Source of the DNA: Candidatus Binatia bacterium
GTDB lineage: Bacteria > Desulfobacterota > Binatia > UBA9968 > JAJDTQ01
Assembly: GCA_951813575.1 (NCBI GenBank)
Contig: OX638375.1
Coordinates: 3,731,330-3,795,329 of the forward strand
Direction of reading: 5' to 3'
Length of the DNA stretch: 64,000 nt
Shown here: positions 23,798 to 36,267 of the stretch, one piece after another
Numbering within the stretch: position 1 is the first letter of the stretch
Layout: every line of letters begins with the position of its first letter
Program-made: the position numbers and the translations under genes
The notes under the pieces: generated by a model
Database searches by the model: none
Seen by the model: the letters and a program-made list of their open reading frames with translations, nothing else
Told to the model about the DNA's origin: nothing

Positions 23798-24643
23798 ATG
23801 CAGATCAAGACAGTCACGCTGTTGCATCCCGGCAACATGGGCGCCACCGTCGGCGCAGCCGTGCAGGGCGCCCGGGTGCTGTGGGTTGCCGCCGGACGGA
23901 GCGAAGGCACCCGACAAAGGGCCTCCAAAGCCGGTCTGGCGGATATGGCGACCCTGGCTGACGCCGTGGGCGAGAGCGATGCGGTGTTGTCCGTGTGCCC
24001 GCCCCATGCGGCCGAGGATGTGGCGGAGAGCGTGGCCGGACTGGGCTTTGGCGGGTTGTACGTGGACGCCAACGCCGTGTCCCGGGCCACCGCTCAAAAG
24101 GTGGGGGGGACCGTCGGCAAGGCCGGGGCGACCTTCGTCGACGGAGCCATCATCGGCCCTCCGGTGACCAAACCGGGAAGGACGCGCCTCTATCTTTCGG
24201 GCGCCGGGGCGGAGGGTGTAGCGAAGCTGTTCTCGGGGAGCATGCTCGATGCCCGGGTCATCGAGGGCGGCCTGGGCGCCGCCTCCGCGCTCAAGATGAC
24301 CTACGCCGCCTGGACCAAGGGCAGCGACGCGCTGATCCTGGCCATCCGCGCGCTGGCGGCGCGGGAAGGGGTGGAGGAGGCCCTGCTCCAGGAATGGGCG
24401 GGGTCCCAGCCCAACCTTCCCGGCAAGAGCGAGCGCGCCGCCTCCGTGGCGGCGCCCAAGGGCTGGCGCTACGTGGGTGAGATGGAGGAGATTGCCGCGA
24501 GCTTCGAAGCGGCCGGGCTCCCCGCTGGCTTCCACAAGGCCGCCGCCGACCTCTACCGCCGGCTGGCCCCGTTCAAGGACCGCGCCGACCCCGGCCCCGA
24601 GGTCAAGGAAGTCCTTGACGCCCTCCAGGATCCAGGCTCCTAG
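23798..24643 (+). CDS. NAD(P)-dependent oxidoreductase (6PGD NAD-binding plus DUF1932)
   Basis: LLHPGNMG, VLSVCPP, YVDANAVS, ASALKMTYAAWTKG, KGWRYVGEMEEIA. Confidence 0.85.
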   Translation: MQIKTVTLLHPGNMGATVGAAVQGARVLWVAAGRSEGTRQRASKAGLADMATLADAVGESDAVLSVCPPHAAEDVAESVAGLGFGGLYVDANAVSRATAQKVGGTVGKAGATFVDGAIIGPPVTKPGRTRLYLSGAGAEGVAKLFSGSMLDARVIEGGLGAASALKMTYAAWTKGSDALILAIRALAAREGVEEALLQEWAGSQPNLPGKSERAASVAAPKGWRYVGEMEEIAASFEAAGLPAGFHKAAADLYRRLAPFKDRADPGPEVKEVLDALQDPGS

Positions 24644-26268
24644 TGGTCCTCTTCTTCGACCTCGCTGGCCTTGACGCGCCGTGACTTGAGTTTCTCGCCG
24701 GTCTCGAAGTAGCGTCCCTCCACCGCCAGCTTGGCTTCCTCGTCCAGCTCGTCGTCCCACTGGCCCAGGGAATAGCCGTACCACGGCATCTTGGGCTTGA
24801 GAGGCGGCAGCATGAACTCCTCCCACAGCTCCCGGGCGTGCTCCATGTACTCCCGCTTGGGCAGCGACACCGGCGGGAAGGGTTCTTTCTGGATGGCATT
24901 GCACAGCATGCCCGACTCGTCCGCCGGCAGGTGGTAGGACACCACGTCCGTGCCCTTGTGATCGTCCTTGTACAGGAACGGCGGGGCGTGGCCCTTTTCC
25001 ATGCCGCCGATGATCTGCACGTCCTGGTGGGGCTTCATGCGGTAGCACATGGCCCAGAACACCGCCGCCTCGTCCGACGGATCGATGTCCTCGTCCACGG
25101 CGATGACGATCTTGCCGACGCCGGGGTGGAACGACGACGCGGCGTGGAGCGCGCGCCACACCTCGGCTTCCTTGGGCTTGCGCATCTGCACGATGACCAG
25201 CTTGTAGGTGTTGGTCAGGGGCTCGTGCATCTCCACCCGGATGACGCTGGTGATGCGGCAGTGGTCTCTCAGGTGCACCAGCATGAGCCGGTCGTAGCCG
25301 ATCTTGCGGATGACCGACGATTCGCTGGGGGTGAGCTGGCTGAGCCATGAGACGTAGATGGCGTTCTTCCGGTGAGTGATGGCGGTGACGTCCATGAACG
25401 GGTTCAACTGCCGCGGGTGCATGTAGCCGTGGGACTCGCCGAACGGTCCCTCGGGCTCCACGAACTCGGTGTTGAGGTGCCCTTCGATGACGATCTCGGA
25501 CTCCGCCGGCACCTGCAGGTCCACGGTCTTGCACTGGGCCATGCGGATGGGCTCGCCCACGAAGCCGCCGGCGATGGCCATCTCGTCCACGCCGTAGTCG
25601 ACCTTCTGCACCGAGACGTAGGAGACCACCGGCGGGGCGCCGATGACCAGGGCCGCCTCCAGCGGCTCGCCGCGCTTCTGGGCGTTCTTCCAGTGCAGGT
25701 AGATGTCCTGCCCCAGTCCGGACGGAAACACGCCCACGCGGGTGTTCGACTTGATCTGGCCCCGGTAGTTGCCGATGTTGCCGATGCCGGTCTCCGGGTC
25801 CTTGGTGATCCAGTGGGAGCAGGTGGTGTAGGGGCCGTTGTCGAACCCGGGGGTGGAGATGGGGACCGGGAACTTGTCCAGCCCTTCGTTCTCCACGGCA
25901 TCGCCCGTCATCACCACTTCATGGCACGCCGGGTCGGCCACCACCTGGGGCTTGATGGGATTGGAGAGGGCATGCTTCCACTTCGCGTCCATCTCGTCGG
26001 CGCTGTTGCAGCCCATGCCCAGGAAGTAGATGGCCCTGCTGCCGGCCAGCGCCCCCACCACCACGGGAAAGTCGAATTTGCGCCCGCGGGCGTCCGTGAC
26101 GTTGGAGAAGTACCACGCCTTGCGGTCCTCGTCGGGGATGCCGCCGCGGTACTGCCAGCGCACCAGCGGATGCAGCTCGGTGTCCTTGTTGATGGTCTGG
26201 TTGATGCGGCGCAGGTGCCCCGCCTCTTCGAGCATCCTCAGATGCTCATGTAGATCTGCATAACCCAT
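24640..26268 (-). CDS. UbiD-family (prFMN-dependent) decarboxylase
   Basis: DLHEHLRMLEEAG, NIGNYRGQ, AESEIVIEG, EPEGPFGESHGY. Confidence 0.9.
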   Translation of the reverse strand: MGYADLHEHLRMLEEAGHLRRINQTINKDTELHPLVRWQYRGGIPDEDRKAWYFSNVTDARGRKFDFPVVVGALAGSRAIYFLGMGCNSADEMDAKWKHALSNPIKPQVVADPACHEVVMTGDAVENEGLDKFPVPISTPGFDNGPYTTCSHWITKDPETGIGNIGNYRGQIKSNTRVGVFPSGLGQDIYLHWKNAQKRGEPLEAALVIGAPPVVSYVSVQKVDYGVDEMAIAGGFVGEPIRMAQCKTVDLQVPAESEIVIEGHLNTEFVEPEGPFGESHGYMHPRQLNPFMDVTAITHRKNAIYVSWLSQLTPSESSVIRKIGYDRLMLVHLRDHCRITSVIRVEMHEPLTNTYKLVIVQMRKPKEAEVWRALHAASSFHPGVGKIVIAVDEDIDPSDEAAVFWAMCYRMKPHQDVQIIGGMEKGHAPPFLYKDDHKGTDVVSYHLPADESGMLCNAIQKEPFPPVSLPKREYMEHARELWEEFMLPPLKPKMPWYGYSLGQWDDELDEEAKLAVEGRYFETGEKLKSRRVKASEVEEEDH

Positions 26269-26517
26269 TAGCTGCCTCCTGTTCGCGTCGATTTCTCGGA
26301 ATGTCGCGGTGAGTTCCCGTAACCCCGTGCGGCACAAGCCCGGATAGCGGGGCTCCAGGCGATCGGCGGAAAGAAACGGATGGCTCTCGTGCGAAGACTG
26401 AAAATAGCCGATGGGGTCGGACCCTGTCAAACCGCGTGCCCCGGCGGTGTCCCCGGGTGCGGAACGGGCCAACAGCGGAGGGTGCAGGCACTGTATTTGC
26501 GTCACCGTTGAAGCGTC

Positions 26518-26576: not shown

Positions 26577-26813
26577 ATGCCTACGATACTGAGGCAGGGG
26601 CCGTACCGGTTCTTCTTCTACTCCAGCGATGGTGAGGAGCCCCGTCATGTGCATGTGGAGCGAGACGACAATGTGGCGAAGTCCTGGCTTGCCCCTGTTC
26701 GTTTGCAGACAATCGGCGGGTTTCGTCCAGCGGAAATCAGGCGTATTGCCGGTATTGTCGAGGACCATCGAAGGGAATTGGTAGAGGCGTGGAATGAGTA
26801 TTTCGGCAGTTGA
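26577..26813 (+). CDS. DUF4160-family protein (predicted toxin)
   Basis: MPTILRQGPYRFFFYSSDGEEPRHVHV...AKSWL...EAWNEYFG. Confidence 0.88.
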   Translation: MPTILRQGPYRFFFYSSDGEEPRHVHVERDDNVAKSWLAPVRLQTIGGFRPAEIRRIAGIVEDHRRELVEAWNEYFGS

Positions 26814-27747
26814 GACGAAAATGCCGAACGCCGTAAGCGTAGAAGTGTCCGGGAATGCGCTGGGCGTCAAGTTGAGCGATGGCAGGACGGTCTCTATTCC
26901 TGTGGACCAGTATCCGAGGCTTGCCTATGCCACGAAGCAAGAGAGGGCCAACTGGCGAATCATCGGTAGAGGTTACGGGATTCACTGGGAAGACCTTGAC
27001 GAAGACATAAGCGTGGAGGGTTTGCAGGCTGGCAATCGATCCGGGGAGAGCAAAACTTCCCTGACGGGCTGGCTAAGGGCGAGGCATCAACCGAAGTTCC
27101 ATCCCTGGCAGGGAGAAGGCTACGGCAGGGTAAATGACTTCGGCCTGCCGGCCAATCTCTTGATCCTCGGAGAATCCCACTACGGGAACCCCAGCGACTG
27201 GGGCCGCTGGCACGGCCAACCCACGGTCGGCGTAGTCCGCGAATACTGTAGAGGCGGCGGTTACTCTTTCTTCACAAAACTCATGCGCACGGTTCTGGGA
27301 CCCGACACTCCCGCGGACACGTCTGAACAGAGGACCGGGTTCTTCGAGTCCGTTGCGTTCTACAACTATGTCCAGTGCAGTGTCGGCAACGCTCCCGACA
27401 TACCTCCGACCCAAGAGGTGTGGGACGAGGCAGCAACTCCGTTTCGCACGACTTTGGAGTCATTGCGCCCAACGCACATCCTGGCGTGTGGAATGAGGTT
27501 GTGGGGCAACATGCCGGGGGCCGAGGAGGTCTGGTCGCCGCCGCCGAAGCCGCTGGTACACTGGTTCGACCCGTTCGACCCCATCGATTTCCCGACACGC
27601 TGGCCGCCTGAGAGTCTTTTGGGTTGTTACCTCCATGCTGAAGGGCAGAGCTTGGTTCTCGCCATCCATCATCCTTCCTGGAAGCGCTATCAACCGAGTG
27701 CCTGGCATCCGGTGGTGAAGCGGTTCCTGGAATACAGTGTCGGATAA
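26794..27747 (+). CDS. DUF2442 domain fused to a uracil-DNA-glycosylase-like domain
   Basis: N-term VKLSDGR...YPRL...GIHWEDLDEDISVEGL; C-term ILGESHY, FYNYVQ, LRPTHILACG, AIHHPS. Confidence 0.7.
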   Translation: MSISAVETKMPNAVSVEVSGNALGVKLSDGRTVSIPVDQYPRLAYATKQERANWRIIGRGYGIHWEDLDEDISVEGLQAGNRSGESKTSLTGWLRARHQPKFHPWQGEGYGRVNDFGLPANLLILGESHYGNPSDWGRWHGQPTVGVVREYCRGGGYSFFTKLMRTVLGPDTPADTSEQRTGFFESVAFYNYVQCSVGNAPDIPPTQEVWDEAATPFRTTLESLRPTHILACGMRLWGNMPGAEEVWSPPPKPLVHWFDPFDPIDFPTRWPPESLLGCYLHAEGQSLVLAIHHPSWKRYQPSAWHPVVKRFLEYSVG

Positions 27748-30257: not shown

Positions 30258-30323
30258 CCTTCGACTTCGCTTCGCTGGCGCTCAGGACGAACGGCTCAAT
30301 TGTTCTCAGGACCGTTCGTCCTG
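30258..30323. repeat. REP-like inverted pair
   Basis: CCTTCGACTTCG...CTCAGGACGAACGG; CAGGACGAACGG (30283-30294) is inverted against CCGTTCGTCCTG (30312-30323). Confidence 0.5.
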
Positions 30324-31795
30324 GGCCCTTCGGCCGTGTCCGGTTCCTTCCCCAGCGCCAGCGAGAACCCGGGTTTGCGGATGTACACTTGGGTGTACTC
30401 CTGCTGCTTGGTGAGTTCGTTGATGAGGCGCACCAGCGGCTGGCTCGCGCTCAGGTATTCCCGGGGCCGGCCCGCGTTCTGCAACTCCTCTACCGCCTCA
30501 TCCCCCGCGAACACGCGTAGTATTAGTTCTTCATCGGAAATGGAGGAGTTGCCGAGTTGCGTCCGGACCTCCTTCAGCGACGGGTCCGGTTGCTCCCATC
30601 CCTCCCACGCCTTGGCCCGGGGCCGCCCGAGGATGCGGTCCTTGACGTCGGGGTCCATGAGCTCGGCGCCTTCCCGGCCCCAGATGCCCAGGGCGTACTG
30701 GATGGACTGGTCCGAGACCTGCTTGTAGCGTTCCCCGAGGATGATGTTGAAGGCGGCCTGGGTCCCCACGAACTGGGACAGGGGCGTCACCATGATGGGA
30801 TAGCCCCACTCCGCGCGTATCCGCGCGGCCTCCTCCAGCGCCGCCGGCAGCTTGTCCTCCATGCCCACGAGACGGAGCTGGTGCACGAAATTGGAGATCA
30901 TGCCGCCGGGCACCTGGTGGGCGTAGACGGACTGGTCGAAGGCCGCGGGCGCACCCATCGGCAGCCGGTCCCGTTTGGCCACGAAGGTGAAGTGCTCCTG
31001 TACGGGCTTCAGCACCTCCTCGTCCACCGGCACCTTGTAACCCAGGGTCCGGAGGTTCTGCGCCATGTTGAAGACCGACGGCTGGGCCGACCCGTTGGCC
31101 AGGGGCGGCACGCCGGTGTGGATGGTGGTCATGCCGAGCTTGATGGCCTCGATATAGTTGAGCGGCGCCAGTCCGTTGTTGCAGTGGGCGTGGAATTCCA
31201 CCGGCGTGTCGCCGACGTTGTCCAGCACGATGGGCACCAGCGTCCGTGTCCGCTCGGGAGTGAGCAGGCCGCCCACGTCCTTGAAGCAGATGCGGTAGGG
31301 CTTCATGGCCGCGGCCTCACGGGTCTTGCGTGCGTAGTATTCGTCGGTGTGTCGCGGCGACTCCGAGTAGATCAGGTTCACGACGGCGTCCACGCCCAGC
31401 CTGCCCAGTTCGTCCACGTCGTCCTTGAACACGGTGTAGTCGTTCCAGGGGTTCGATGTGCGGGTGAGCCGGATGCCGCTGTCGACGACATGCTGGACCA
31501 CGAGCCGGGCCACCGCCGTCGGCTTCTTCTCCAGCCCGCCCTTCACGCCCCCGTGGAGCCGGAGCGGGGTGTTGCGCGCGCGCCGGGCGCCCTCCCGCAA
31601 CCAGTGCCAGGGGTCCTCCTTGTGCTCGCGCACGTACTTCTTGATCATCGTGGCGCTGAAGAACTCCATGGACTCGAAGCCCGCCTGGTCCATGCGCTCG
31701 ATGGCCTCGAGCATGGCCGCGGTCTTCATGTTGAAGGCCCACAGGCTCTGGTTACCGTCGCGCAGGGTGGTGTCGACAAATTTTACGTCGCTCAT
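30296..31795 (-). CDS. Stand-alone pyruvate-carboxylase/OadA-type carboxyltransferase, copy 1
   Basis: DTTLRDGNQS, ICFKDVGG, FHAHCNNG, HQVPGG, MVTPLSQ; no biotinyl domain. Confidence 0.85.
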   Translation of the reverse strand: MSDVKFVDTTLRDGNQSLWAFNMKTAAMLEAIERMDQAGFESMEFFSATMIKKYVREHKEDPWHWLREGARRARNTPLRLHGGVKGGLEKKPTAVARLVVQHVVDSGIRLTRTSNPWNDYTVFKDDVDELGRLGVDAVVNLIYSESPRHTDEYYARKTREAAAMKPYRICFKDVGGLLTPERTRTLVPIVLDNVGDTPVEFHAHCNNGLAPLNYIEAIKLGMTTIHTGVPPLANGSAQPSVFNMAQNLRTLGYKVPVDEEVLKPVQEHFTFVAKRDRLPMGAPAAFDQSVYAHQVPGGMISNFVHQLRLVGMEDKLPAALEEAARIRAEWGYPIMVTPLSQFVGTQAAFNIILGERYKQVSDQSIQYALGIWGREGAELMDPDVKDRILGRPRAKAWEGWEQPDPSLKEVRTQLGNSSISDEELILRVFAGDEAVEELQNAGRPREYLSASQPLVRLINELTKQQEYTQVYIRKPGFSLALGKEPDTAEGPRTNGPENN

Positions 31796-31803
31796 CGGTC
31801 TCC

Positions 31804-33288
31804 TCAGGTCGCGGCCTCGTCCGCCACGTCTCCGTTGTCGTTCCGCCCCAGGGTGAGGGAGAAGTCCGGCTTGCGGATGTAGACCTGGGTATATTCCTGC
31901 TGCCGCGTGAGCTCGTTGATGAGCCGCACCAGCGGCTGGCTGGCGCTCAGGTACTCCCGGGGCCGGCCAGCGTTCTGCAGCGCCTCCACCGCCTCGTCCC
32001 CCGCGTACACCCGCATGATCAACTCCTCGTCCGACAACGACGACCCGATCTGCGCCCGGACCTCCTTGAGCGACGGGTCCGGCTGCTCCCAATTCTCCCA
32101 GGCCTTGGCCCGCGGCCGTCCCAGGATGCGATCCTTCACGTCCGGGTCCATGTACTCGGCGCCCTGCCGCCCCCAGATGCCCAGGGCGTACTGGATGGAC
32201 TGGTCGGTGACCTGCTTGTAGCGTTCTCCCATGATGACGTTGATGGCCGCCTGGGTACCCACGAACTGGGACAACGGCGTGACCATGATGGGATAGCCCC
32301 ACTCTTCGCGCACCCGCGCGGCCTCCTCCAGCGCCGCCGGCAGCTTGTCCTCCATGCCCACGAGCTTGAGCTGGTGCACGAAGTTGGAGATCATGCCGCC
32401 GGGCACCTGGTGGCCGTAGACGGACTGGTCGAAGGCTCGGGGCGCCCCTATGGGCAGCCCGTCCCGCTTGGCCACGAAGGTGAAATGCTCCCGCACCGGC
32501 TCCAGCGCCTTCTCGTCCACCGACGCTGTGTGGCCCATGGCGCGCACGTTCCTGAGCATGTTGAAGATCGAGGGCTGGGCCGAACCGTTGGCCAGGGGCG
32601 GCACGCTGGTGTGGATGGTGGTCATGCCGAGCTTGATGGCTTCCAGGTAGTTGAGCGGCGCCAGGCCGTTGTTGCAGTGGGCGTGGAACTCCACGGGGAT
32701 GTCGCCGATGTTCTCCAGCACGATGGGCACCAGCGTGCGGGTGCGCTCCGGAGTCAGCATTCCGCCCACGTCCTTGAAGCAGATGCGGTAGGGCTTCAGG
32801 GCCGCGGCTTCCCGGGCCTTCTGGGCGTAGTACTCGTCGGTGTGCCGTGGCGATACCGAGTAGATGATGTTTGCCACGGCATCCATGCCCAGCTCGCGCA
32901 GGTCGTCCACCTCCTGCTTGAACACCGAGTAGTCGTTCCACGGGTTGGAGTTGCGCGTCAGGCGGATGCCGTTGTCCACCAGGTGACTGACCACCAGCTT
33001 GGCTACCGACGTGGGCTTCTTCTCCAGCCCGCCCCGGATGCTGCCGTGCATCCGCAGGGAGGTGTTGCGGGCGCGCTTGGTGCCTTCGCGGATCCAGCGC
33101 CACGGGTTCTCCTTGTGCTCGCGCACGTACTTCTTGATCATGGTGGCGCTGAAGAACTCCATGGACTCGAAGCCCGCCCGGTCCATGCCTTCTATGGCCT
33201 CCAGCATGGCCGCGGTCCTCATGTTGTAGGCCCACAGGCTCTGGTTGCCGTCCCGCAGCGTGGTGTCCACGAATGTGACGTCGCTCAT
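31804..33288 (-). CDS. Stand-alone carboxyltransferase, copy 2
   Basis: Same motifs; GGAG SD. Confidence 0.85.
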   Translation of the reverse strand: MSDVTFVDTTLRDGNQSLWAYNMRTAAMLEAIEGMDRAGFESMEFFSATMIKKYVREHKENPWRWIREGTKRARNTSLRMHGSIRGGLEKKPTSVAKLVVSHLVDNGIRLTRNSNPWNDYSVFKQEVDDLRELGMDAVANIIYSVSPRHTDEYYAQKAREAAALKPYRICFKDVGGMLTPERTRTLVPIVLENIGDIPVEFHAHCNNGLAPLNYLEAIKLGMTTIHTSVPPLANGSAQPSIFNMLRNVRAMGHTASVDEKALEPVREHFTFVAKRDGLPIGAPRAFDQSVYGHQVPGGMISNFVHQLKLVGMEDKLPAALEEAARVREEWGYPIMVTPLSQFVGTQAAINVIMGERYKQVTDQSIQYALGIWGRQGAEYMDPDVKDRILGRPRAKAWENWEQPDPSLKEVRAQIGSSLSDEELIMRVYAGDEAVEALQNAGRPREYLSASQPLVRLINELTRQQEYTQVYIRKPDFSLTLGRNDNGDVADEAAT

Positions 33289-33295
33289 GGTTTCC

Positions 33296-34783
33296 TCAGT
33301 CGGCGGCCGTCTCGGCCCCGTCTCCGTCGGCGCTCCGCCCCAGGGTCAGAGAGAAGCCCGGCTTGCGGATGTACACCTGGGTGTATTCTTTCTGTTTGGT
33401 CAGCTCGTTGATGAGCCGCACCAGGGGCTGGCGCGCGCTCAGGTACTCGCGCGGGCGGCCGGACTCCATCATGGTCTTGACCTCGTCCACGCCGGCGTAA
33501 ACCCGCAGCACCAGTTCCTCGTCGGAAATCGACTGCCCGCCCAACTGGGACCGGAGCTCGGCCAGCGACGGCTCCGGCTGCTCCCAGTCGGTCCACGCCT
33601 TGGCCCGGGGCCGGCCGAGGATCTTGTCCTTGACGTCGGGGTCCATGAGCTCCGCGCCCTCGCGGCCCCAGATGCCCAAGGCGTACTGGATGGACTGGTC
33701 CGCCACCTCCTTGTAGCGCTCTCCCAGGATGACGTTGAAAGCCGCCTGGGTGCCGACGAACTGGGACAGCGGCGTCACCATGATGGGGTAGCCCCACTCG
33801 CCGCGCACCCGCGCGGCCTCCTCCAGCGCCGCCGGCAGCTTGTCCTCCATGCCCACGAGCTTGAGCTGGTGCACGAAGTTGGAGATCATGCCGCCGGGGA
33901 CCTGGTGCAGGTACTGGCCGTGGTTGTATTCCACGGGCTTGCCGATGGGGAGGCCGTCGCGCCGGGCCACGTAGGTGAAGTGCTCCTCCACCGGCCGCAG
34001 CACCTCCTCGTCCACCAGTGGCGTATGGCCCGTGGCGCGGATGTTCCGCACCATGTTGAAAATGGAGGGCTGCGCCGAGGCGTTGGCCAGCGGCGGCACG
34101 CTGGTGTGGATGGTGGTCATGCCGAGCTCGATGGCTTCGAGGTAGTTGAGCGGCGCCAGCCCGTTGTTGCAGTGGGCGTGGAACTCCACCGGGGTGTCGC
34201 CGATGTTCTCCAGCACCAGCGGCACCAGCGTCCGGGTGCGCTCGGGCGTGAGCAGGCCGCCCACGTCCTTGAAGCAGATGCCGTAGGGCTTGATGGCCGC
34301 GGCTTCCCGGGCCTTTTGGGCATAGTACTCGTCGGTGTGCCTGGGCGACACCGAGTAGATCAGGTTGACGACGCACTCCATGCCCAGCTCACGCAGCCCC
34401 TTCACCTCCTCGCCGAAGACGTCGTAGTCGTTCCAGGAGTTGGACGTGCGCGTGAGCGTGATGCCACTGTCCACCACCTTCTGGATGATGAGCCGAAGTA
34501 TCGACGACGGCTTCTTCTCAAGCCCTCCCTTCAGGCCGCCGTGGAGGCGCAACTCGGTCTTGCGGAGCCGCTTGGTGCCCTCCCGGAGCCAGTCCCACGG
34601 GTTCTCCTTGTGCTCCCGCACGTACTTCTTGAACATGTTGGTGACGAAGAACTCCATGGACTCGAAGCCCGCCTGGTCCATCTGCTCGGCGGTCTCCACC
34701 ATGGCCGCGGTCTTCATGTTGAGCGCCCAAAGGCTCTGGTTGCCGTCCCGCAGGGTCGTGTCGATGAATCGGATATCGCTCAT
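33296..34783 (-). CDS. Stand-alone carboxyltransferase, copy 3
   Basis: Same motifs; GGGAG SD. Confidence 0.85.
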   Translation of the reverse strand: MSDIRFIDTTLRDGNQSLWALNMKTAAMVETAEQMDQAGFESMEFFVTNMFKKYVREHKENPWDWLREGTKRLRKTELRLHGGLKGGLEKKPSSILRLIIQKVVDSGITLTRTSNSWNDYDVFGEEVKGLRELGMECVVNLIYSVSPRHTDEYYAQKAREAAAIKPYGICFKDVGGLLTPERTRTLVPLVLENIGDTPVEFHAHCNNGLAPLNYLEAIELGMTTIHTSVPPLANASAQPSIFNMVRNIRATGHTPLVDEEVLRPVEEHFTYVARRDGLPIGKPVEYNHGQYLHQVPGGMISNFVHQLKLVGMEDKLPAALEEAARVRGEWGYPIMVTPLSQFVGTQAAFNVILGERYKEVADQSIQYALGIWGREGAELMDPDVKDKILGRPRAKAWTDWEQPEPSLAELRSQLGGQSISDEELVLRVYAGVDEVKTMMESGRPREYLSARQPLVRLINELTKQKEYTQVYIRKPGFSLTLGRSADGDGAETAAD

Positions 34784-34956
34784 GTCGTCTCCCGAAAGAA
34801 GCGTTGGTGCAGACTGCTCATAGTGGCTTGAATGCAAAGACGGGTCAAGGCGAGCCCCATGAAGGAGGGGAGGGGCGAGGAGGATCGTTACATGGTAGAT
34901 ATGCTGTCCAATTCATCCGACTATCCCAAGCCGGACACGTTCAAGGGAGGAAAGTA

Positions 34957-36267
34957 GTGACGGAACAGCAATCTCAACCGGTGGAGGAACGCATCCTCCG
35001 ACTCCTCCGACGTCTCGGTATCGACAGGGCCCACATGGCCGCCTACCTCCCGGGCGACTGGGGCGGGTTGCTGGAGCGCTACCCGTCCGCGGTGGCGTCG
35101 CTGAACCTCATCTGCCCCCGGGGGGTCAAGACCGAGGTGCTCCGTCCCCATGCCCGCAGGGTGCTGATCGTGTCCGGCGACGGCGGCAATGGCGTGGCCG
35201 ATCTGATGCGCGCGGTCGATGACCTCCCGGGCGTCACCCTGACCATGCTGCGCGACTACTTCAGCCGCATGTGGGCGGATATCATGGTGGACCGCAGGGG
35301 CGAGGTACGGTCGGCAATGCTGGAGTTTCTGGCGCTTCGAGACGATGAGAATCCGCTTCCGTCCGTTCAGTTGCCGGAAGGGGAGGGGGAGGAGGCCGGC
35401 ATCTCGTACACGGTGAAGGGCACGGGGCCGCCGCTGCTGCTGTTCCCGCTGGGGCTGGCGGCGTCGCAGTGGGACCCTCTGCTGCCCGCTCTCGCCGAAC
35501 GCTACACCACCATCACGGTGGGAGGCCGCTACGTCGGCATGGTGGCGTTTCTGGAGACCCGCGGTCCCGGCTACCTCCGCGCGGTGCGGACCGTGGTGGA
35601 CGAAGTAGGGCTCGAGCCCGGCCAGACGGTGCTGGAGGTGGGCTGCGGCGCCGGCACGGTGGCCCGCTGGCTGGCTCGCTACACGGAGAAACGGAATCCC
35701 GTCGTGGGGGCGGACATCAACGCCTATCTTCTCCGCGAGGCCTCGAAGCTGGCCGCCGCCGAAGGGCTCGATGAAGTCATCGAATGGCGGAGCGCCAACG
35801 GCGAGGGGCTGCCGTTCGCGGACGGACGCTTCGACGCCACCATGGCGTTCACGGTCATGGAGGAAGGGGACGCCGACGCCATGCTGGCCCAGCTTGTCCG
35901 GGTCACCCGGCCCGGCGGCAAGGTGGCGGCGATCGTCCGTTCCCTGGACATGCCCTGGTGGGTCAACCTGCCGCTGCCGCCGGATCTCAGGCACAAGGCC
36001 CAGACCGGTATGGGCGACGTGGTGGAGGGCGGGTGCGCGGACGCGAGCCTGTACGGGCGCATGGAGCGGGCCGGACTCAAGGACGTGGTCATGCTGCCGC
36101 AGTACGCCACGTACGCGTCGGGAGAGCGCCTGCAACAGCAGCAGGAACGCATGGCTTCCCGGCTCACGCCGAAGGAAGCCGAGGAATGGCGTCAGGCCAT
36201 CGCCGCCGCCGGCAATCAGTTCTTCATCTCACAGCCGTTCCACTCGGCCGTGGGCACCAGGCCGTGA
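34957..36267 (+). CDS. Alpha/beta-hydrolase-like domain fused to a class I SAM methyltransferase
   Basis: VLEVGCGAG, GADIN, LPFADGRFD, RVTRPGG; GGGAGG SD before the GTG. Confidence 0.82.
   Translation: MTEQQSQPVEERILRLLRRLGIDRAHMAAYLPGDWGGLLERYPSAVASLNLICPRGVKTEVLRPHARRVLIVSGDGGNGVADLMRAVDDLPGVTLTMLRDYFSRMWADIMVDRRGEVRSAMLEFLALRDDENPLPSVQLPEGEGEEAGISYTVKGTGPPLLLFPLGLAASQWDPLLPALAERYTTITVGGRYVGMVAFLETRGPGYLRAVRTVVDEVGLEPGQTVLEVGCGAGTVARWLARYTEKRNPVVGADINAYLLREASKLAAAEGLDEVIEWRSANGEGLPFADGRFDATMAFTVMEEGDADAMLAQLVRVTRPGGKVAAIVRSLDMPWWVNLPLPPDLRHKAQTGMGDVVEGGCADASLYGRMERAGLKDVVMLPQYATYASGERLQQQQERMASRLTPKEAEEWRQAIAAAGNQFFISQPFHSAVGTRP

Follow-up and report, generated by a model that had tools for sequence, protein, structure and literature searches.

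Biotin carboxylases with a transferase of the pyruvate carboxylase type were, to our knowledge, long believed to have essentially three substrates, namely pyruvate, oxaloacetate and 2-oxoglutarate. In the acyl-CoA carboxylases of actinobacteria one alpha subunit uniting biotin carboxylase (BC) with biotin carboxyl carrier protein (BCCP), AccA3, serves several carboxyltransferase (CT) beta subunits (AccD4, AccD5 and AccD6). The aryl-ketone carboxylases described in 2022 showed that the pyruvate carboxylase scaffold can take other ketones: HpeCBA (PMC9618137) and AcvCDE (bioRxiv 10.1101/2022.04.28.489975) were each demonstrated biochemically to be ATP- and biotin-dependent carboxylases of phosphorylated acetophenones. 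The CTs of these systems, HpeB of Rhodococcus rhodochrous GD02 and AcvE of Sphingobium sp. SYK-6, are, like XccC of Aromatoleum aromaticum EbN1, stand-alone proteins combining HMGL-like and PYC_OADA domains without a biotinyl domain, and are served in a catabolic role by a separate AccB-like carrier and a separate AccC-like BC. Here we analyse an array of three tandem genes of this type, CT-A, CT-B and CT-C, present in a 64,000-nucleotide stretch (hereafter the window) of contig OX638375.1 from a Candidatus Binatia bacterium.

We read CT-A, CT-B and CT-C in the same way, as specificity CT subunits of an ATP- and biotin-dependent three-component carboxylase served in trans by an accB-accC gene pair located elsewhere in the genome, and put the probability of this reading at roughly 55%. 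It is based on the fold and catalytic set of the three proteins, their position in a phylogenetic tree, the operon linkage of their relatives and the presence of an accB-accC pair that lacks a transferase partner. The same comparisons lead us to infer that the pair is shared in trans, which way the reaction runs, that a C-terminal tail serves in docking and to what class the substrates belong. Enzymes that combine an HMGL-type CT with BC and BCCP as separate proteins have been known since 2022, and one BC-BCCP serving several CTs is an arrangement known from the acyl-CoA carboxylases of actinobacteria. What is new, as read from the sequences, is a large sister family that keeps the canonical metal site intact but has a rebuilt substrate pocket and reaches about ten copies per genome; new as well are the tandem specificity arrays and what appears to be one BC/BCCP pair shared by the CTs.

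Plasmid homologues from Rhodococcus and Sphingobium, which have the same operon structure and stand in for HpeB, AcvE and XccC in our maximum-likelihood tree, align with the family of the array over residues 1-480, the tail included, and both groups consist of stand-alone CTs of about 480-500 amino acids. The two are, nevertheless, only 34-39% identical and form separate clades. The Hpe and Acv operons carry kinase and phosphatase genes (HpeHI/HpeD and AcvAB/AcvF, respectively) and act on phosphorylated acetophenones (PMC9618137), and kinase and phosphatase genes were likewise present in both of the BCCP-BC-CT operons examined (Rhodococcus and Sphingobium), whereas no PPDK-like or HAD gene was found near the array, the neighbours of which encode UbiD, M20, Amidohydro_2 and methyltransferase proteins. 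The Rhodococcus homologue has no carbamyl-Lys (reading ELEDAAG), whereas CT-A, CT-B and CT-C keep the canonical metal set. Furthermore, BCCP and BC genes lie in the CT operon in the Hpe/Acv type, in Sulfitobacter and in three genomes from other Binatia-order genera (G020, G026 and G030), but not beside the array or any other family copy in this genome, in which, unlike the Hpe/Acv operons, one BC/BCCP pair about 1.1 Mb from the array faces ten CTs.

With PycB (PDB code 5ks8), OadA (2nx9) and 5S (1rqb) the array proteins share the two-domain fold, the metal ligands, the Thr shuttle and the motifs QVPGGM and VTP.SQ.VG.QA, and 5S also resembles them in having no carrier of its own. They differ from these enzymes in sequence (26-31% identity), in the extra C-terminal tail and in having no adjacent 12S/1.3S or Oad beta/gamma partners. 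The actinobacterial AccA3/AccD systems follow the same hub-and-spoke logic, in which substrate-specific transferases share a BC/carrier module, but AccD proteins have the crotonase fold and act on acyl-CoA substrates, whereas here the transferases are HMGL-type TIM barrels and would share a carrier and a BC that are separate proteins.

The array and its family

The three genes are co-directional, all on the minus strand, and their features, in window coordinates, are as follows.

33296-34783, minus strand: CT-A, first gene of the array; 495 amino acids, HMGL-like plus PYC_OADA; motifs WAL, FFVTNM and RLHGGLK
31804-33288, minus strand: CT-B, second gene of the array; 494 amino acids; motifs WAY, FFSATM and RMHGSIR
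30296-31795, minus strand: CT-C, third gene of the array and sister of CT-B; 499 amino acids; motifs WAF, FFSATM and RLHGGVK
33289-33295, minus strand: A-B spacer of 7 nt, the TGA stop of CT-A lying within the GAGGA ribosome-binding site of CT-B; sequence …GACTGAGGAAACC followed by ATG
31796-31803, minus strand: B-C spacer of 8 nt, the TGA stop of CT-B lying within the GAGGAG ribosome-binding site of CT-C; sequence …CCTGAGGAGACCG followed by ATG
34784-35034, no strand assigned: divergent intergenic region of about 250 bp between CT-A and a plus-strand methyltransferase-domain gene, the presumed promoter region of the array
30311-30439, minus strand: C-terminal helix and beta-hairpin tail, CT-C example, approximately residues 452-494; QPLVRLINELTKQQEYTQVYIRKPGFSLxLG

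An initial annotation, made from the sequence of the window, had described three tandem stand-alone CT paralogues at 30296-34783, and the three open reading frames fall exactly on that span. Each of the motifs that it listed is present, both those of the catalytic set (RDGNQS, FKDVGG, HAH, HQVPGG and VTPLSQ, common to the three proteins) and those that distinguish the copies; the canonical counterparts that it named, WGGATFD and MLLRG, are seen in the canonical paralogue of this genome and in PDB entries 5ks8 and 2nx9. Each protein contains the Pfam domains HMGL-like (PF00682) and PYC_OADA (PF02436), and the Pfam scan found no biotinyl domain (PF00364) in any of them. As the annotation also had it, no biotin carrier, BC or Oad beta/gamma gene was found in the window, nor were crotonase-type transferase or 1.3S/12S genes. 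The G+C content at third codon positions (GC3) of the array genes, 0.91-0.93, is the same as that of other genes of this 66% GC genome. The position of the CT-A stop codon inside the ribosome-binding site of CT-B suggests translational coupling of the second gene to the first. A scan of the array for promoters and terminators yielded nothing above chance, and a sigma-70 consensus was not found in the divergent intergenic region.

At the protein level CT-A and CT-B are 78% identical, CT-A and CT-C 77% and CT-B and CT-C 82%. Synonymous divergence (dS) among the copies is about 0.46-0.51, the ratio of nonsynonymous to synonymous divergence (dN/dS) is 0.22-0.34, and all three genes are under purifying selection. 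The suggestion that their C-terminal halves are near-identical held for residues 151-250 and 301-400, the blocks conserved between copies (82-96% identity), but not for residues 251-300 and 401-450, which vary as much as the N-terminal loops and, with residues 51-150, make up the variable blocks. The regional dN/dS comparison that had been proposed resolved these variable and conserved blocks and found no conversion tract: an origin of the conserved blocks by gene conversion was rejected, the proportion of synonymous differences (pS) being 0.18-0.57 in every 50-codon segment and identical tracts being absent.

The array had been seen as an isolated triplet, a view that did not survive inspection of the whole genome. 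The closed 4.21-Mb genome contains 11 PYC_OADA genes, one of them canonical and ten divergent, so that the array represents three of ten genome copies of a large, widespread family. The canonical paralogue (C1:1168618-1169988) is a 5S/OadA-like protein of 456 amino acids that contains the motifs WGGATFD and MLLRGQN and shares 31% identity with CT-B; it too has no biotinyl domain. The ten divergent copies are of 483-501 amino acids and share 50-82% identity with one another. CT matches number 6-12 per genome in species of the same genus and 0-10 in other genera of the order. A protein search gave more than 6,000 clusters, variously named 'oxaloacetate decarboxylase alpha', 'biotin carboxyl carrier protein' or 'hypothetical', and genome matches included Binatia, cultured Marinobacter, Udaeobacter, and SAR202 with other Dehalococcoidia; a full-text literature search found no description of the family.

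A conserved operon partner for the family was sought by clustering 57 loci and was rejected, the neighbours being recurrent but not universal. Those that recur encode Amidohydro_2 proteins, NMT1/TRAP/TTT binding proteins, UbiD, LLM and MmgE/PrpD. On three long contigs from other phyla the family genes are monocistronic and their contexts unrelated. NCBIfam gave no specific name for any Amidohydro_2 partner of the family CTs.

Phylogeny and candidate biotin partners

The initial annotation had proposed a phylogeny against PycB, OadA and 5S, and in our tree CT-A, CT-B and CT-C fall outside the canonical clade, with the three-component carboxylases. The divergent family is a sub-clade (support 98/99) within a 100/100 clade shared with the Rhodococcus and Sphingobium operon CTs (27 rows), and the canonical 5S/OadA/PycB enzymes are set apart by a branch of 2.3 substitutions per site, again supported at 100/100. 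Basal positions in the family are taken by the Binatia type with operon linkage and by another four copies from this genome; the array proteins are placed in a 100/100 subgroup with operon-linked CTs of Sulfitobacter and Marinobacter and members from SAR202; the local topology is ((B,C),A) and the next relative is p4174, the copy at 4.175 Mb. Since BC/BCCP linkage occurs on both sides of the array proteins in the tree, a biotin-dependent ancestry is the parsimonious reading.

The linked relatives are of several kinds. On a plasmid of Sulfitobacter faviae the genes run accB-accC-CT with gaps of 0 and 11 nt, adjoined by TRAP transporter, CoA-transferase and citryl-CoA lyase genes, and the CT is 54.7% identical to CT-B, with which it shares the motifs LRLH.G, EFF and SLWA. 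In the plasmid group at 34-39% identity (Rhodococcus, Sphingobium, Novosphingobium and Pseudomonas) the arrangement is BCCP-BC-CT. Genomes G020, G026 and G030 have accB-accC-CT-Amidohydro_2 operons, employing the single AccC-type BC of the genome. The Amidohydro_2 proteins of these operons (L120, L121 and L122) are of 283-284 amino acids; the orthologue of the operon CT in the present genome is found at 2710908-2712413, 40 kb from accB-accC and beside pgi and an amidase gene.

In Marinobacter azerbaijanicus one extra BCCP-BC pair is surrounded by three CTs of the family, all in a span of 50 kb. A co-directional cluster there encodes a CT, citryl-CoA lyase, TRAP-PQM, a short-chain dehydrogenase/reductase (SDR), BCCP and BC; the second CT is followed by Amidohydro_2 and the third by enoyl-CoA hydratase and dienelactone hydrolase (DLH). 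These genes belong to a catabolic island of about 50 kb in strain TBZ242 (NZ_JASSVS010000012.1, about 47-117 kb; L108, L102 and L115), in which every CT is accompanied by a TRAP/TAXI transporter of its own and the helper enzymes differ from one CT to the next. Being in a cultured bacterium, the island offers a tractable system for finding substrates.

Two BCs and three biotin carriers are encoded in the Binatia genome, arranged as follows.

3.06 Mb: BC, 167-amino-acid BCCP and 12S-type CT, an archaeal-style acyl-CoA carboxylase
2.46 Mb (2.460 Mb): 71-amino-acid biotin protein, OadB-like membrane subunit and 12S-type CT
2.669 Mb (C1 2668.7-2670.6 kb): accB-accC pair, about 1.1 Mb from the array

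A BC/BCCP partner elsewhere in the genome had been anticipated, and the pair at 2.669 Mb, which has no other transferase partner, was found to be of this description. Neither AccA nor AccD was found in the genome and its only two crotonase-type CTs each lie beside their own biotin carrier, one of them beside its own BC also, which leaves the accB-accC pair without a conventional transferase. Given an accB-accC pair without AccA and AccD, malonyl-CoA for lipid synthesis probably comes from the archaeal-style acyl-CoA carboxylase and not from a bacterial heteromeric acetyl-CoA carboxylase. The neighbours of the pair encode a dienelactone hydrolase, two Amidohydro_2 proteins, an HpcH-type aldolase, an alpha/beta hydrolase and a TctC-like binding protein; DLH, Amidohydro_2 and TctC genes thus flank both accB-accC here and family CTs elsewhere. 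Orthologues of this accC are the BCs that precede the family CTs in G020, G026 and G030.

There is one AccC-type BC per genome as against up to 11-12 CT-family matches. Of 31 related genomes, 27 have family CTs and 25 of these also have the AccC-type BC, which occurs in none of the four without such CTs, the two exceptions in the former group being 76% and 81% complete. This co-occurrence was set aside as proof of a link since the canonical 456-amino-acid CT has almost the same distribution, and it is the operon linkage in relatives that carries the argument. The canonical CT itself could be the partner of the 71-amino-acid carrier with its pump, or of accB-accC.

The remaining biotin modules bring in a second possibility, namely biotin-dependent decarboxylation or transcarboxylation without ATP, the array proteins serving as alternative alpha subunits that pass CO2 from a beta-keto acid either to the 71-amino-acid carrier encoded with the OadB-like Na+ pump or to transferases of the 12S type. 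The genome does encode the components of both the 2.46-Mb and the 3.06-Mb sets, OadA and 5S are the nearest solved relatives, and a catabolic context energetically favours decarboxylation. However, where a family CT is linked to a partner this is always an AccB-type carrier with an ATP-grasp AccC-type BC, never an OadB pump or a 12S CT; the canonical paralogue is the more obvious partner for the pump and 12S clusters; and the OadA association domain was not detected in the divergent family. We consider decarboxylation of this kind unlikely. The earlier idea of modular CTs sharing a carrier in trans retains its core, supported by the operons in relatives, by Marinobacter and by the partner-less accB-accC pair, with the amendment that the partner is probably a full BC and BCCP pair.

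Active site, substrate loops and tail

Comparison with profile models places the array proteins at a distance from named families. On the NCBIfam models of PycB, OadA and 5S they score 285-321 bits where the cut-offs are 402-1182 bits: the best domain-model score is 307-321 bits against a cut-off of 402, the PycB model gives 285-299 against 734, and the OadA and 5S models are missed likewise, every equivalog cut-off being missed 2-3 fold. Scores of the PYC_OADA domain are 84-92 bits in the three proteins. Models of aldolases and synthases (DmpG, HMG-CoA lyase, IPMS class) yield 15-54 bits against cut-offs of at least 229, and the PYC_OADA funnel is present here, whereas in the biotin-independent HMGL-like lyase/synthase class the barrel lacks it and is joined to a C-terminal domain peculiar to each family, such as the communication domain of DmpG or the dimerisation domain of LeuA. 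An AlphaFold2 (AF2) model of CT-B, with a pLDDT of 80.8, gave 5ks8 (two-subunit pyruvate carboxylase beta), 1rqh (5S) and 2nx9 (OadA) as its best Foldseek matches, with TM-scores of about 0.77 and E-values of 1e-26 to 1e-28.

Alignment to 5ks8 and 2nx9 shows that Arg12, Asp13, Gln16, Lys172, His202, His204, Thr337 and Ser340 are retained. Across 129 sequences of the divergent family Asp13, Lys172, His202, His204 and Thr337 are invariant, while Ser340, which aligns to the biotin-contacting Ser, is retained in 105 and the Gln16 position is hydrophobic in about 20%. In the Lactococcus lactis pyruvate carboxylase (LlPC), Thr867 is the proton shuttle, Ser870 contacts biotin and Arg606 is essential for activity (PMC9581989). 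The last of these, the pyruvate-binding Arg of MLLRGQN, aligns to His81 of the array proteins, after a 2-residue deletion; by the same alignment the Asp of WGGATFD becomes Lys52 and the loop Tyr Leu88. As a whole, WGGATFD is replaced by FF(V/S)(T/A)(N/T)M(F/I)K, and LQMLLRGQNLLGY by LR(L/M)HG...GGL with 2-3 residues deleted. Compared with canonical CTs the pyruvate-binding Arg is therefore lost and Arg79, His81 and Lys52/53 are gained, and Trp19, Lys53, Arg79 and Trp117 are new residues invariant in the family. The 2-oxo acids that had been suggested are no more than candidate substrates: the Arg, Tyr and Asp that bind pyruvate in canonical enzymes are replaced, and among characterised enzymes the closest relatives are carboxylases of aryl methyl ketones (PMC9618137).

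Within the divergent family the most variable positions are 47-51 and 84-91. At position 21 Leu is the commonest state (100 of the 129 sequences) and is that of CT-A. Between the orthologues of CT-A, CT-B and CT-C 31 sites are fixed differently, with concentrations at residues 4-116 and 266-290; they include 21, 48, 49, 77, 83, 85, 94-96, 102, 113, 116 and 282-290, and some of them, when placed by alignment to the solved enzymes, fall on the canonical GGATF and R606/608-618 substrate loops. The location of both the variable positions and the type-specific sites in substrate loops points to a substrate side that was rebuilt and then diversified, with the biotin side kept. In view of the fixed loop differences, each of the three proteins probably takes a different but related substrate.

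The C-terminal tail comprises, in the AF2 model and with moderate confidence, a helix (452-462) and two strands (468-472 and 477-481). It is present in the array proteins and throughout the clade of stand-alone CTs, those of Rhodococcus and Sphingobium included, and is absent from the canonical 5S/OadA paralogue in the alignment. In the two-subunit pyruvate carboxylase MfPC a beta-sheet in the linker between CT and BCCP binds the C-terminal helix of BC, a sheet that in archaeal PycB is down to two strands (PMC5059739). The tail occupies the position of this linker sheet and is probably, judging from that position, a docking element for the BC/BCCP module. Its pattern resembles the N-terminal helix-hairpin of AccB, a weak but in-register match in hhalign (P = 1.8e-4, probability 49%).

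Several observations weigh against biotin-dependent CTs served in trans. BLAST of the tail against the AccB of the genome returned nothing, and a hidden Markov model (HMM) of 108 tails, run against the proteome and two AccB sequences, returned family members only; homology of the tail to the BCCP N terminus is not taken as established, and the resemblance is retained as a lead. The nearest 1 Mb around the array is free of BC and BCCP genes, none of the ten copies has one beside it, and among 80 family loci (1.2 Mb) BC/BCCP genes were found within 10 kb at only two, both in Marinobacter. The canonical 456-amino-acid CT could be the true or an additional partner of accB-accC. Ser340 is Ala in 19% of family members. 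Tyr628 and Asp590 (R. etli numbering), which we take to build the substrate-induced biotin pocket of pyruvate carboxylase, correspond in the alignment to Leu88 and Lys52.

The unlinked loci, the replacement of these residues and of the pyruvate-site Arg, the substitutions at Gln16 and Ser340, and the catabolic decarboxylase and hydrolase families in the neighbourhood (UbiD, Amidohydro_2 and M20) would all suit enzymes that act alone, either metal-dependent beta-keto-acid decarboxylases or aldolase/lyase-type enzymes like DmpG and HMG-CoA lyase, on keto acids derived from ring cleavage or lactones. Biotin-independent enzymes would not be expected to have retained the funnel, PIMVTP..Q..G.QA, HQVPGGM and Thr337 in more than 120 diverse sequences, nor to conserve a docking-like tail in their unlinked copies. 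Moreover, members with identical motif sets are found directly behind accB-accC, and in the tree the family falls amid biotin enzymes that are either proven or linked in operons. Independence from biotin seems to us improbable.

Under the preferred reading, carboxylation by three components in trans, the accB-accC pair at 2.669 Mb would supply BC and biotinylated BCCP, AccC carboxylating the biotin of AccB from ATP and bicarbonate and the carrier swinging carboxybiotin into the funnel of whichever CT dimer is there. A divalent metal on Asp13, (carbamyl-)Lys172, His202 and His204 would polarise the carbonyl of the bound keto compound and Thr337 would shuttle a proton, the carboxyl group being transferred to the alpha-carbon to yield a beta-keto acid for further breakdown. 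CT-A, CT-B and CT-C would differ in the keto compound accepted, the tail would dock each onto the shared BC/BCCP module, and the same pair may also serve the seven other family copies of the genome. The family-wide gene context, in which Amidohydro_2, DLH, CoA-transferase III, citryl-CoA lyase and TRAP/TTT carboxylate transporters feature, suggests that the substrates are keto-carboxylates from lactones or ring-cleavage products, with CoA activation and cleavage to follow.

The array across the genus and its significance

The array recurs in a further 10 genomes of the genus, each assembled independently, where residue 21 is fixed per orthologue as Leu in CT-A, Tyr in CT-B and Phe in CT-C. The gene order across the genus is UbiD, M20, Amidohydro_2, C, B, A and then the methyltransferase gene. 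All three copies, in the order A-B-C, are found at 8 of 11 genus loci (the window included), while the arrays of three genomes are reduced to A and C (G011), A and B (G005) or A alone, followed directly by UbiD (G010). CT-A is the sole copy found at all 11 loci and CT-C is missing from G005 and G010. The derived residues Tyr21, Ser83, Arg85 and Asn113 of CT-B are fixed among its orthologues. An assembly artefact, already thought improbable in the initial annotation, is excluded by recurrence in independent assemblies with varying copy number and by the dS between copies.

That annotation had also raised a hetero-oligomer, in which CT-A, CT-B and CT-C would form one obligate mixed CT complex acting on a single substrate, with some copies catalytic and others structural. 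A tight operon with translationally coupled spacers of 7-8 nt, the prevalence of the A-B-C order, the dimeric state of canonical CT domains (PMC5059739; PDB 2nx9 and 1rqb) and conserved blocks that could keep a common interface are all compatible with this. Yet the full catalytic set is present in all three copies, each under purifying selection, the fixed differences sit in substrate loops and not in one degenerate copy, and species with A alone, A and B or A and C manage with one or two of them. An obligate complex is, on these grounds, very unlikely.

Some features of the neighbouring genes may be recorded. The UbiD-family decarboxylase (window 24640-26505, minus strand) scores 244.3 bits, narrowly missing the TIGR00148 cut-off of 244.85; it has an N-terminal extension of about 85 amino acids, and its synteny with the CT array holds throughout the genus. 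The G010 copy follows CT-A directly and on the same strand, and the M20 and Amidohydro_2 genes that separate the two here may accordingly be a later insertion. Between UbiD and M20 lies an open reading frame of 317 amino acids (window 26794-27747, plus strand) with an N-terminal DUF2442 and a GC content of 0.60 as against 0.66. It had no BLAST match in the GC3-filtered gene calls of the genus loci, a filter that itself drops low-GC reading frames, and for that reason it is only possibly a small inserted element. The gene divergent from CT-A (window 34804-36267, plus strand) encodes a protein of about 440-490 amino acids with a UbiE-like S-adenosylmethionine (SAM) methyltransferase domain in residues 260-380 only and no assigned domain in its N-terminal half, and stands beside the array in all genus loci examined.

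A broader picture, which we offer tentatively and regard as possible but still doubtful, is that of a hub and its spokes: one AccB/AccC module, in a genome that has no acetyl-CoA carboxylase transferase, would serve up to a dozen interchangeable HMGL-type CTs that dock by an AccB-like tail, giving a general ATP-driven carboxylation of ketones and keto acids that come from recalcitrant organic matter and would not otherwise react, in Binatia and apparently also in SAR202, Dehalococcoidia, Marinobacter and roseobacters. CT-A, CT-B and CT-C would then be three recently diverged specificities, possibly forming mixed dimers.

The family has thousands of metagenomic members, with about 5-11 copies per Binatia genome. 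If the interpretation is correct, a function would be provided for proteins that at present carry the mistaken annotations given above, and naturally diversified C-C bond-forming (CO2-fixing) catalysts would be seen to operate on one energy module. With family members in cultured Marinobacter and Sulfitobacter, a direct test is within reach. For the organisms themselves, one energy module could serve many breakdown reactions, and carboxylation of this kind would be a common means by which uncultured bacteria abundant in soil and ocean break down recalcitrant carbon.

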